Part shown: positions 15,001 through 18,000 of the stretch, one piece after another
How positions within the stretch are numbered: the stretch's first letter is position 1
How the letters are laid out: each line of letters starts with the position of its first letter
Source of the DNA: a virus
Taxonomy: Duplodnaviria; Heunggongvirae; Uroviricota; Caudoviricetes
Length of the DNA: 51,153 nt
Direction: 5' to 3' (one strand)
Virus record (IMG/VR): IMGVR_UViG_2939521961_000005
Made by a program: the position numbers

Positions 15001-18000
15001 ATCCAGTTGTGAGTTAATCAACGCTGATTGCCTGGAATTTATCCAGACCTTACCGGAAAACTCTGTCGATCTGATAGTCACAGACCCGCCATACTTTAAA
15101 GTGAAGCCCGAGGGCTGGGATAACCAGTGGGAGGGCGACGATGATTACCTGAAATGGCTGGACCAGTGTCTGGCGCAGTTCTGGCGGGTACTGAAGCCTG
15201 CCGGAAGTCTTTACCTGTTCTGTGGTCATCGCCTGGCATCTGACACCGAAATCATGATGCGTGAGCGCTTTAATGTGCTGAACCACATTATCTGGGCGAA
15301 GCCGTCCGGACGCTGGAACGGGTGCAATAAGGAAAGTCTGCGGGCGTATTTTCCGGCAACAGAGCGCATTCTGTTTGCAGAACATTATCAGGGACCGTAT
15401 CGCCCGAAAGATGATGGCTATGTGGAGCAGGGGCGCGAGCTAAAACAGCACGTCATGGCCCCGCTGATTTCTTACTTTCGTGATGCGCGTAAATCACTGG
15501 GAATAACGTCAAAACAGATAGCGGAAGCCACCGGAAAGAAAAACATGGCTTCGCACTGGTTTGGTATCAGTCAGTGGCAGTTACCGAACGAGGGTGATTA
15601 CAACAAATTGCAGGCGTTGTTTGCGCGTGTTGCGGCAGAAAAACATCAGCGCGGGGAACTGGAAAAGCCACACCACCAGCTGGTCAGCACATACAGTGAG
15701 CTGAACCGGCAGTATACGGAACTGCTGAGTGAATATAAAAATTTGCGGCGGTATTTCGGTGTGACGGCGCAGGTTCCGTACACCGATGTCTGGACGCATA
15801 AACCGGTGCAGTACTATCCAGGGAAACATCCGTGCGAAAAACCGGCAGAAATGCTGCAGCAGATAATCAACGCGAGCAGTCGTCCGGGAGACCTGGTTGC
15901 AGATTTTTTTATGGGTTCAGGTTCAACGGTAAAAGCGGCGATGGCACTGGGGCGTTGTGCGATTGGTGTTGAGCTGGAGACCGGACGCTTTGAACAGACA
16001 GTCAGGGAAGTTCAGGATTTAATCGTTTGAAACGGATGAGATTGCAGAATTAATTACGCACCATTATTATTCTGCTCCCGGCCCTTTAGCTCAGTGGTGA
16101 GAGCGAGCGACTCATAATCGCCAGGTCGCTGGTTCAAATCCAGCAAGGGCCACCATCACAAACCGCCATTAGCTTATCAGGAAGAGCAGACGACACCATA
16201 ACAGGGTTGTTGGTGCGGGGGCGGGTCCCCGATGGCGGTCCATTATCGGTATTCTGCGTTGTTAGCTCAGCCGGACAGAGCAATTGCCTTCTAAGCAATC
16301 GGTCAGTGGTTCGACTCCACTACAACGCGCCACACTTATTTTCCAGGCTCGCTTCGGCGGGCCTTTTTTGTATCTGCGCCACGCCCGGCGCATATCAACC
16401 ACAGAGCCTTTCGGGGGTGAGCTTACGGAGTGGTCAGTGTGACTTTCTCTGTGGGCAGATCGCTCCCGGGCGTTGGCTCACCCACCCAAAGGAACGTCAC
16501 GATGTTTGGAATCTTCAAAAAGAAAACCCGCAGAGCGGCAGCGGAAATTAAAAAGTTTGAGAAACGCGATCTGGCACAGGCGGTGATTAACGCTGCATAC
16601 CTGGTGGCCTATGCAGATGGTGAATGCGAGGCATCCGAGAAAGCGAAGATCGAACAGGTCTTACGTAATCAGCCTGCGTTGTCTGCGTTTACCTCGGAAA
16701 TTAATGCGATTAGCGCAACTATTATCGGTCAGCTGGATACCAATTTTAAAATTGGTCGTCGTGCCGCGTTACGCGAGATTGAGGATGTGAAACACGATAC
16801 GCGTGAAGCGGAAGATGTGCTGGATGTGGCGGTGGCCATTGCGGAGGCAGACGGCGAAATTGAGCCGGAAGAGCGCAAGGTGCTGGAAGAGATTGCCGGT
16901 GTTCTGGGTCTTCGTCTGGAGAATCACCTGTGACGGTAAAACTGCGCCTGGCTGTGGCTGCACTCCTGCTGTTTCTGGTGGTGATGGTGGATTTCACCAG
17001 CAGAATCATGTCGGTGCTGGCGGATGGGGTGCTGGTCTGCGGCATTGTGGTATTGCTGTGGCCGGTGATAAAAAGAAACAGCCTGCATAATGCTTGGTTT
17101 TTTTGTTTGCTGTTTATTAAAAACACTTCTGCATGGTGAATCCCCCTGTGCGGAGGGGCGATCAGCAACCAGGTATATGGGATAATCGCGGATTCAGGTG
17201 CTGATACTGAATTCACCGGGAGGCACCCGGCACCATACAAGAAAAAGAATGTGCATGCAAACATGCCCCTCTCCGGAGGGGCTTTTTTATGGGTAAAAAA
17301 TGCCCGAATGGGTTCGGGCAATAGCATGAGATACTGATATTGTTGTGTTGTTATCGTGTGGATTTTAACCAGGGTTTATCAGGCTGCGCAACTGCGTGGC
17401 CTTTTTTCATTTCTTGGGCTGTAGTCCCCGTGTGTCATTCAGGCTTCCGGACTACAGCCCACTCCATATCTGATTTAATACACTATCCCGGCCGGGAGGA
17501 ATAATGACATTTAAACATTATGATGTTGTCAGGGCGGCGTCGCCGTCAGACCTTGCGGAAAAGCTGACACACAAACTGAAAGAGGGCTGGCAGCCGTTTG
17601 GTAGTCCGGTGGCCATAACCCCTTATACCCTGATGCAGGCGATTACAGCAGAAGGTGATGTGGTGGTCAGTGGTGCAACTGAGCCGGATTGGTACTACGT
17701 CATCGTACTGGCCGGGCAGTCCAATGCCATGGCTTACGGTGAAGGGCTTCCGCTGCCGGATTCATACGATGCTCCGGATCCGCGCATTAAACAGCTGGCG
17801 CGCCGCAGTACAGTGACGCCGGGTGGGGCTGCCTGCAGATATAACGATATTATTCCGGCCGACCACTGCCTGCATGATGTGCAGGATATGAGTACGCTGA
17901 ATCATCCGAAGGCAGACCTGAGCAAAGGGCAGTACGGCTGTGTCGGCCAGGGCTTACATATTGCCAAAAAACTGCTTCCGTATATCCCGAATAACGCGGG

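Follow-up and report, generated by a model that had tools for sequence, protein, structure and literature searches.

The DNA considered here is the IMG/VR record IMGVR_UViG_2939521961_000005 (Caudoviricetes), a stretch of 51,153 nucleotides (nt) that is referred to as the window, with coordinates counted over its whole length and the plus strand taken as that of the late operon; the element in question is the gap immediately upstream of nanS-p, the gene for a prophage sialate O-acetylesterase. This gap is the junction between the moron cargo and the late genes of a lambdoid prophage of the Escherichia coli O26 / O157 Sp10 type. From 5' to 3' on the late-operon strand, it carries a small RNA (sRNA) of the STnc100 family, the convergent anti-sRNA AgvB, a second terminator, a hairpin, a spacer with the Shine-Dalgarno box and then nanS-p, which is the first gene past the junction, with the holin gene next. 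The hairpin corresponds to a perfect inverted repeat which, as far as aligned homologues can tell, is a strand-specific RNA structure on the sense (late) transcript, with its pairing conserved rather than its sequence. Taken as a whole, the interval is probably a known sRNA pair, together with two sense terminators and a sense-strand leader hairpin in the late read-through RNA. The features are as follows.

16502-16933, plus strand: TerB/TciA-like gene (Pfam TerB, 60.2 bits), upstream of the DUF3927 open reading frame (ORF)
16930-17139, plus strand: gene for a DUF3927 small membrane protein, the last ORF of the moron cargo (Pfam DUF3927, 60.8 bits; RefSeq annotation of O26 11368)
17102-17294, plus strand: STnc100-family sRNA (RF02076; Rfam 141.5 bits, gathering score 47; full model, 1-206 of 206)
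17356-17295, minus strand: AgvB anti-sRNA (anti-GcvB; RF02702; Rfam 96.5 bits, gathering score 56; model 1-62 of 62)
17362-17391, minus strand: putative sigma-70 promoter of AgvB (-10 TAAAAT at 17367-17362; -35 TTGCGC at 17391-17386; 18-nt spacer)
17381-17407, plus strand: candidate second intrinsic terminator from a terminator scan (stem 17381-17389/17394-17402, then a T-run)
17415-17461, plus strand: inverted repeat, read as an RNA hairpin of the late transcript, within its nanS-p leader (arms 17415-17427 / 17449-17461)
17484-17506, plus strand: near-invariant box TATCCCGGCCGGGAGGA, with the Shine-Dalgarno sequence GGGAGGA at 17494-17500 and the ATG at 17504 (invariant in alignments A1 and A2)
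17504-19354, plus strand: nanS-p (DUF1737, SASA and DUF6645; Pfam matches, phage and RefSeq annotation)

An initial annotation, made from the sequence alone, had treated the gap as an anonymous structured non-coding interval. The four structures that it listed are real and lie within ±1 nt of where it had placed them (sequence, terminator and repeat scans), but three of the four belong to the known STnc100 and AgvB genes, so the interval is structured without being anonymous. An Rfam scan, which it had asked for, matched RF02076 and RF02702; 17400-17500 gave no family match at E≤1. It had also seen no credible ORF, and the ORF scan agrees, returning only ORFs of 31-54 amino acids whose frames are broken in homologues, among which the leaders differ by indels of 1, 2 and 4 nt; the ORF at 17340-17504 was rejected as coding on the same ground. 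Two points were absent from that annotation, namely that the hairpin at 17301-17320 is a minus-strand terminator and that a second plus-strand terminator stands at 17381-17407.

An inverted repeat kept by pairing in the nanS-p leader

The repeat had been described as a perfect 12-bp inverted repeat about 45 bp before the nanS-p start. It is indeed perfect, and its length is 13 bp, with arms of 13 nt each that are 100% complementary around a 21-nt loop; it starts 6-8 nt downstream of the second terminator and ends 43 nt upstream of the nanS-p ATG. As RNA it is predicted to fold at -28 kcal/mol (z -5.6). The 51-kb window has three loci with a perfect repeat of 12 bp or more whose loop does not exceed 40 nt, compared with a mean of 0.05 per shuffle in 40 dinucleotide-preserving shuffles of the window, and the repeat is therefore not a chance match. 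An intrinsic terminator was considered and rejected, since no U-tract follows the stem: ACUCCAUAUC follows on the plus strand and AAGAAAUGAA on the minus strand.

Homologues were drawn from 120 viral contigs that carry the invariant Shine-Dalgarno box and from phage and genome loci, which gave 43 distinct leaders of 162 nt; a scan of genome contigs with the NanS-p N-terminus added only a few new lineages. Across these leaders the pairing of the repeat is kept, whereas the perfect match is a property of the window lineage and most phages carry one or two mid-stem mismatches. In its usual form the hairpin has a 7-bp outer helix (96.7% of alignment cells paired), an internal loop of 1-2 nt and a 4-bp inner helix (100% paired), with 88.6% of cells paired over the hairpin as a whole.

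Five of the 13 pairs have changed on both sides (16 cells), by C-G to U-A, G-C to U-A, U-A to G-C, A-U to U·G and G-C to U·G replacements that are spread over four lineages, namely the window type, PhiR12_3, L062 and POCJ13. Among the non-Watson-Crick cells, 61 are G·U and 9 are A·C, or 30 and 9 when the most frequent column is removed. The covariation score of the hairpin is 0.189, compared with 0.117 in shuffles (reached in 0 of 500) and at most 0.10 for slid partners, but the sequences are related and mosaic and represent few independent lineages, so the shuffle control overstates the significance. A consensus fold by RNAalifold finds the helix de novo on the plus strand (-16.1) and next to nothing on the minus strand (-0.3). 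The loop, in contrast to the stem, has been swapped wholesale between lineages, with lengths of 11, 17, 20, 21 and 27 nt, and its only conserved part is the 3' end, (C/U)UUCC, which adjoins the stem's GGA. When the hairpin was used as a search pattern, only nanS-p leaders were matched.

The identity of the repeat as an RNA hairpin therefore follows from compensatory changes, the G·U excess, the strand asymmetry and the variable loop. Compensatory and wobble changes on one strand are what a cis-acting RNA stem-loop should show, and they are present here, albeit in few independent lineages and with central pairs that are not kept. Of the two roles that the initial annotation had offered for the repeat, a regulatory protein site fares badly given the arm distance of 11-27 nt and the asymmetric conservation of the arms. 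The other, an RNA stem sequestering the 5' untranslated region, holds as regards the stem (5 of 13 pairs compensated, 61 G·U against 9 A·C, sense strand only) and fails as regards sequestration, as the ribosome-binding site lies 33 nt downstream of the stem and is not covered by it.

The right arm of the hairpin carries a 4-nt CAGC duplication in Sakai Sp10 (L144), at the equivalent of window position 17454, which shortens the stem to 11 bp; viral contig L092 shares this duplication. There is also a second nanS-p leader family that is unrelated in sequence (L134, L136, L188 and 44 other viral-contig copies) and whose protein starts MSIK or MSIN. Its leaders have the same terminator at the corresponding position, immediately followed by a different hairpin, AUGACCUGCC-ACU-GGCAGAUGGUCAU or AUCUGCC-ACU-GGCAGAU, of about -10 kcal/mol, and by tandem UUCCGG motifs with UUCC...GGGA pairing at the Shine-Dalgarno sequence.

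The convergent pair of AgvB and an STnc100-family sRNA

The other structures of the gap belong to two sRNA genes. The window copy of AgvB is identical to the Rfam consensus at 62 of 62 positions and identical to the AgvB1 locus of Sakai Sp10. Its 5' end lies at 17356 and its sequence, CGAUAACAACACAACAAUAUC..., holds CACAACA, the GcvB-R1 target motif, in the 5' region. As its terminator it has the hairpin TGCCCGAA-TGGG-TTCGGGCA at 17301-17320, with an 8-bp stem and a U6 run at 17300-17295 on the minus strand; it is the A6 run on the plus strand, on the 5' side of the hairpin, that marks it as a terminator of the minus strand. AgvB thus lies antisense to the late operon, convergent with the sense sRNA and between the moron and nanS-p, in a layout identical to those of Sakai Sp10 and Sp17, and the late RNA is fully complementary to it.

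The sense partner belongs to the STnc100 family, as it shows a full-length covariance-model match above the gathering score and ends in an intrinsic terminator, with the stem GCCCCTCTCCGGAGGGGC at 17265-17282 followed by T6 at 17283-17288 (-16.3 kcal/mol, z -3.9). The hairpin CCCCU/AGGGG (17143-17147/17154-17158) lies inside this sRNA. STnc100 and AgvB converge, and their terminators are only 6 nt apart. Members of RF02076 occupy the corresponding place in Sakai Sp10 and Sp17, 933W, POCJ13 and PhiR12_3.

Convergent sRNAs between a moron coding sequence and a conserved downstream ORF have been described in Sakai prophages Sp3, 4, 5, 9, 10, 11, 15 and 17 (Tree et al. 2014, Mol Cell, PMC4104026). 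The same work mapped the AgvB 5' end, showed the sponging of GcvB and defined the CACAACA motif (PMC4104026); an Hfq-bound AgvB of ~60 nt that relieves GcvB repression was shown there for the identical Sakai sequence rather than for the window strain (PMC4104026), and AgvB was found to affect fitness in bovine rectal mucus (PMC4104026). In comparison with the pair of that study, in which AgvB, AsxR or EcOnc03 faces EcOnc27 or EcOnc06, the window has the same locus, architecture, AgvB sequence and STnc100-family sense partner. There is no difference in the sRNAs, and the second terminator and the leader hairpin are undescribed there as far as its searchable text shows. The sRNA pair and the junction are thus already known, and by every feature that can be checked from sequence the window copy is an ordinary member.

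The window STnc100 copy is the sense-strand partner of the convergent pair and a homologue of EcOnc27 in Sp5, and most probably also of EcOnc06 in Sp17. The coordinates of EcOnc06 ('5' ECs1961') come from an older genome version, and an offset of about +128 to +146 places it inside the Sp17 STnc100 copy, although this mapping is inexact. EcOnc27 is ~235/247 nt long and Hfq-dependent and EcOnc06 is ~177 nt long (Tree et al. 2014, Table S2; PMC4104026). STnc100 has been reported downstream of stx2 (PMC12370729), and it has been described as akin to PasD and linked to the esterase locus (Zhu, Shabalina & Storz 2026 preprint, bioRxiv 10.64898/2026.05.13.724894). The window copy shares with this STnc100 / PasD family the full-length match at 141.5 bits and the prophage context beside a sialate esterase gene; it differs in scoring lower than the copies of Stx2 phages (207.7 bits in 933W) and in the middle of the RNA, which is shortened in the window lineage.

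An octamer, CCGGGAGG, is shared by the invariant internal hairpin of STnc100 (CCGGGAGGCACCCGG, 17215-17229) and the Shine-Dalgarno box of nanS-p (CCCGGCCGGGAGGA, 17490-17499), which may be a coincidence or a functional link. In Shiga toxin (Stx) phages, AsxR or another antisense sRNA replaces AgvB, as AsxR does in 933W. Many Stx1 and Stx2 phages (L004, L006, L007 and L008; alignment A1 columns 235-330) carry in the AgvB/AsxR place a different antisense unit with the same -35 and -10 hexamers and a terminator of its own (GCCCGCGTCTCCCAGCGCGGGC + T6, minus strand), and at its position in L009 and L010 the Rfam scores stay below the gathering score for every family. It is possible that unnamed EcOnc peaks in Tree et al. 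2014 represent this unit.

A second terminator over the putative AgvB promoter

The putative promoter of AgvB was read from the sequence relative to the 5' end matched by the Rfam model. It matches 8 of 12 consensus positions, hence its absence from the list of the promoter scan, and an A-tract (17407-17402) lies just upstream of its -35 hexamer. In all 43 distinct leaders TGCGCAA is invariant and the -10 hexamer is either TAAAAT or TATTAT.

On the sense strand, the same segment has the form of an intrinsic terminator, a G+C-rich stem-loop with a U-tract directly following at 17381-17407. Its 9-bp stem and 4-nt loop are predicted to fold at -14.9 kcal/mol (z -4.3), the stem covers the AgvB -35 TTGCGC, and its T-run is, on the other strand, the A-tract upstream of that hexamer. 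RNA polymerase modified by Q, in reading through, would run across the AgvB promoter. In the literature, as far as searchable text shows, neither the leader hairpin nor this overlap of terminator and AgvB promoter is mentioned, and neither falls within an Rfam family.

The translation start of nanS-p

Between the hairpin and the Shine-Dalgarno box lies an unstructured spacer of 22 nt. A weak local hairpin, UCCC (17486-89) with GGGA (17494-97), is predicted at -5.2 kcal/mol (z -0.2) and could hide part of the Shine-Dalgarno sequence, which is unpaired with a predicted probability of 0.1-0.36. As a regulator in its own right this local hairpin was rejected: its z-score is unremarkable, its invariance allows no covariation test, and a CCAGG variant found in 12 loci weakens it.

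A promoter of nanS-p inside the leader was likewise rejected, as the sense-strand promoter scan of 17000-17600 found none and the candidates picked out visually are missing a -35 hexamer or the -11A. Control by NanR was rejected too, because no NanR-type GGTATA repeat is present; a single hexamer occurs at 17173, inside STnc100.

Distribution and genomic surroundings

The window matches E. coli O26 genomes at 100%, and the RefSeq locus of O26 11368 is near-identical to that of the window; the interval has 98% identity to that of O157 Sakai prophage Sp10, the AgvB1 gene included. It was found between stxB, or other cargo, and nanS-p in 356 phage records, mostly of Stx phages, and in 2853 of 5426 complete E. 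coli genomes, some of which hold it in up to 12 places. In Stx phages, stxAB stands where the window has its DUF3927 cargo, with stxB at the corresponding position.

Upstream of the cargo, two phage tRNA genes lie at 16080-16155 and 16256-16332, one with a CAT anticodon (Met according to ARAGORN, tRNA-Ile/ileZ according to RefSeq) and the other a tRNA-Arg(TCT), and they are followed by a terminator-like hairpin at 16345-16364. Elsewhere in the window, Rfam matches were obtained for the sok antitoxin RNA (114.9 bits; 11576-11750, plus strand) and for DicF (76.7 bits; 5078-5129, minus strand). A second perfect 13-bp inverted repeat at 21163-21195 (AAAACCCCGTTTG / CAAACGGGGTTTT, 7-nt loop), is flanked by A/T runs on either side and resembles a bidirectional terminator, and overlapping perfect 12-bp inverted repeats built on GCAAATGTTAAC / CAGTTAACATTT are clustered at 24866-24919, possibly as a putative protein-binding site.

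Weighing the possible roles of the hairpin

As the role of the hairpin we tentatively prefer, at a confidence well below even, that of a cis-acting 5' boundary or stabiliser of the nanS-p/lysis segment after cleavage of the late RNA. In 933W-type leaders, a GUAUU/GAAUU motif of the RNase E type stands 3-4 nt upstream of the stem, and cleavage by RNase E at GU|AUU has been documented for StxS in the same late transcript (PMC7547250). Known 5' stem-loop stabilisers, such as the ompA leader, and processed late leaders, such as those of lambda and of StxS (PMC7547250), likewise have, where a coding segment begins, a stable stem-loop near a U-rich site of the RNase E type; the likeness would be one of function by analogy.

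Several observations pull the other way. The seventh pair of the stem is a T·T mismatch in 34 of the 43 leaders, the eighth is mismatched in 20 of 43 with left-arm position 8 varying among A, C and T without compensation, and several singleton variants break outer pairs; because of these central mismatches and pair-breaking singletons, selection for pairing is not strict. The window's own spacer (UUUUUUCAUUUCUU) fits the RNase E motif only loosely, and a U-rich spacer will contain such motifs by chance. For the second terminator, 82% of cells are paired across the 43 leaders, with 60 G·U and 10 A·C, but its covariation does not exceed that of shuffles, so that it is by form and position that it is taken as a terminator; the AgvB -35 hexamer could by itself explain why the segment is conserved.

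The main alternative is a translational switch, in which CUUCCGG at the loop/stem junction acts as an anti-Shine-Dalgarno sequence for CCGGGAG(G), so that formation or melting of the stem would gate the nanS-p ribosome-binding site. CUUCCGG can form seven pairs with CCGGGAG, 17433-17450 is 72% complementary to 17492-17509, and in a loop that otherwise varies the UUCC-GGA junction is conserved; the unrelated second leader family again has UUCCGG motifs and a proximal UUCC..GGGA pairing. In-silico mutants of the arm give opposite answers in the two leader types: when the left arm of a 933W-type leader is destroyed or deleted, Shine-Dalgarno accessibility drops from 0.48 to 0.01-0.05, whereas the same mutations leave a window-type leader unchanged (0.34 versus 0.32-0.36). 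Even in 933W, it is not CUUCCGG that does the sequestering but another segment of the loop, UCCUUC. The minimum-energy fold keeps the hairpin in 37 of 37 variants, with only the weak local hairpin at the Shine-Dalgarno sequence; the Shine-Dalgarno box is invariant, so covariation with it cannot be assessed, and the switch is without a known trigger. We regard such a switch as unlikely. It is more improbable still that the repeat is a neutral palindrome, with no function of its own and simply carried in a recombining, recently spread module beside the AgvB promoter and the nanS-p ribosome-binding site. That most copies are closely related and, being mosaic, represent few independent lineages would fit such an origin, as would the uncompensated central mismatches, the singletons that break pairs, the lineage-specific perfect form and the right-arm duplication in Sakai Sp10. 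However, it does not readily account for double changes in five pairs and four lineages, the strong excess of G·U over A·C, pairing kept despite loop replacements of 11-27 nt, or the hairpin of unlike sequence that takes the same position in the second leader family.

Two other explanations carry little weight. The hairpin might be part of a separate small RNA or an RNase III processing site, since the locus is dense in Hfq-bound RNAs and RNase III sites in the late leader of phage lambda are on record (Daniels et al. 1988, as cited in PMC7547250). An RNase III site calls for a near-continuous duplex of about 20 bp, or two helical turns, whereas the stem here has 13 bp and, in most homologues, 7 + 4 bp with an internal loop. 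For a separate sRNA, one would look for a U-tract after the stem, which neither strand has, an Rfam match, which was not obtained, or a peak of its own in Table S2 of Tree et al. 2014, which has none at this place, EcOnc06 mapping to the STnc100 copy once the genome-version offset is applied; HnrS (EcOnc10-12), tried as an identity for the hairpin, was rejected as it lies ~5 kb away in Sp10. We hold this explanation to be very improbable. The same is true, to a marginally greater degree, of a double-stranded DNA operator for a dimeric regulator of the AgvB promoter or of a nanS-p promoter. The perfect 13-bp palindromic pair of the window does sit on the upstream side of the AgvB promoter, between -59 and -105 relative to the start of AgvB, as such an operator might. 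An operator should have fixed spacing and symmetrically conserved half-sites, but the arm separation of 11-27 nt would change the helical phase of the half-sites, the arms are not conserved symmetrically, and their divergence is of the G·U type, which preserves RNA pairing and not arm sequence. There is also neither a sense-strand promoter in 17000-17600 nor a NanR-type GGTATA repeat, and the operator was rejected.

Proposed mechanism

In this phage group, transcripts from PR' pass terminators only after Q has modified the polymerase. In the lysogen, if established lambdoid biology applies, moron transcription would be stopped at the two sense terminators and yield the STnc100-type sRNA, and AgvB would be transcribed from the opposite strand and sponge the host GcvB. 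Upon induction, Q-modified RNA polymerase would cross both terminators, and nanS-p and the lysis genes would be expressed from a long late RNA, on which the hairpin could form. Under the preferred role of a 5' boundary, an endonuclease would cleave in the U-rich spacer upstream of the stem, or in the duplex of AgvB with the late RNA, and the hairpin would then shield the nanS-p/lysis mRNA from 5'-end-dependent decay and might keep the leader from mispairing with the Shine-Dalgarno box. Mitomycin C has been reported to raise nanS-p mRNA by 1-2.4 log, with co-expression of stx2a (PMC10462455). Lambdoid moron units with a terminator of their own (Juhala et al. 2000, as cited in PMC4104026) have the same order of cargo and then intrinsic terminators overridden by Q-modified polymerase; the present junction differs in having two tandem terminators, the second of which is superimposed on an antisense promoter.

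Significance

Although RefSeq and GenBank phage records leave this gap blank, AgvB and an STnc100-type sRNA are encoded in it, and to say so is mainly to correct the earlier reading of the interval. The new piece is small: a sense-strand hairpin in the nanS-p leader whose pairing is kept, and a terminator that overlaps the AgvB promoter, both of familiar kinds; a leader hairpin as such would not surprise a specialist. It is conceivable, although we doubt it, that the terminator, the hairpin with its CUUCC-GGA junction, the pyrimidine-rich spacer and the CCCGGCCGGGAGGA box form an undescribed cis-regulatory leader common to two unrelated leader families. If this is true, such a leader module might respond to the neighbouring sRNAs, through the complementarity to AgvB and the octamer CCGGGAGG in STnc100, and it would determine the stability or the translation of the nanS-p message, and perhaps that of the lysis genes behind it, within the Q-antiterminated late RNA.

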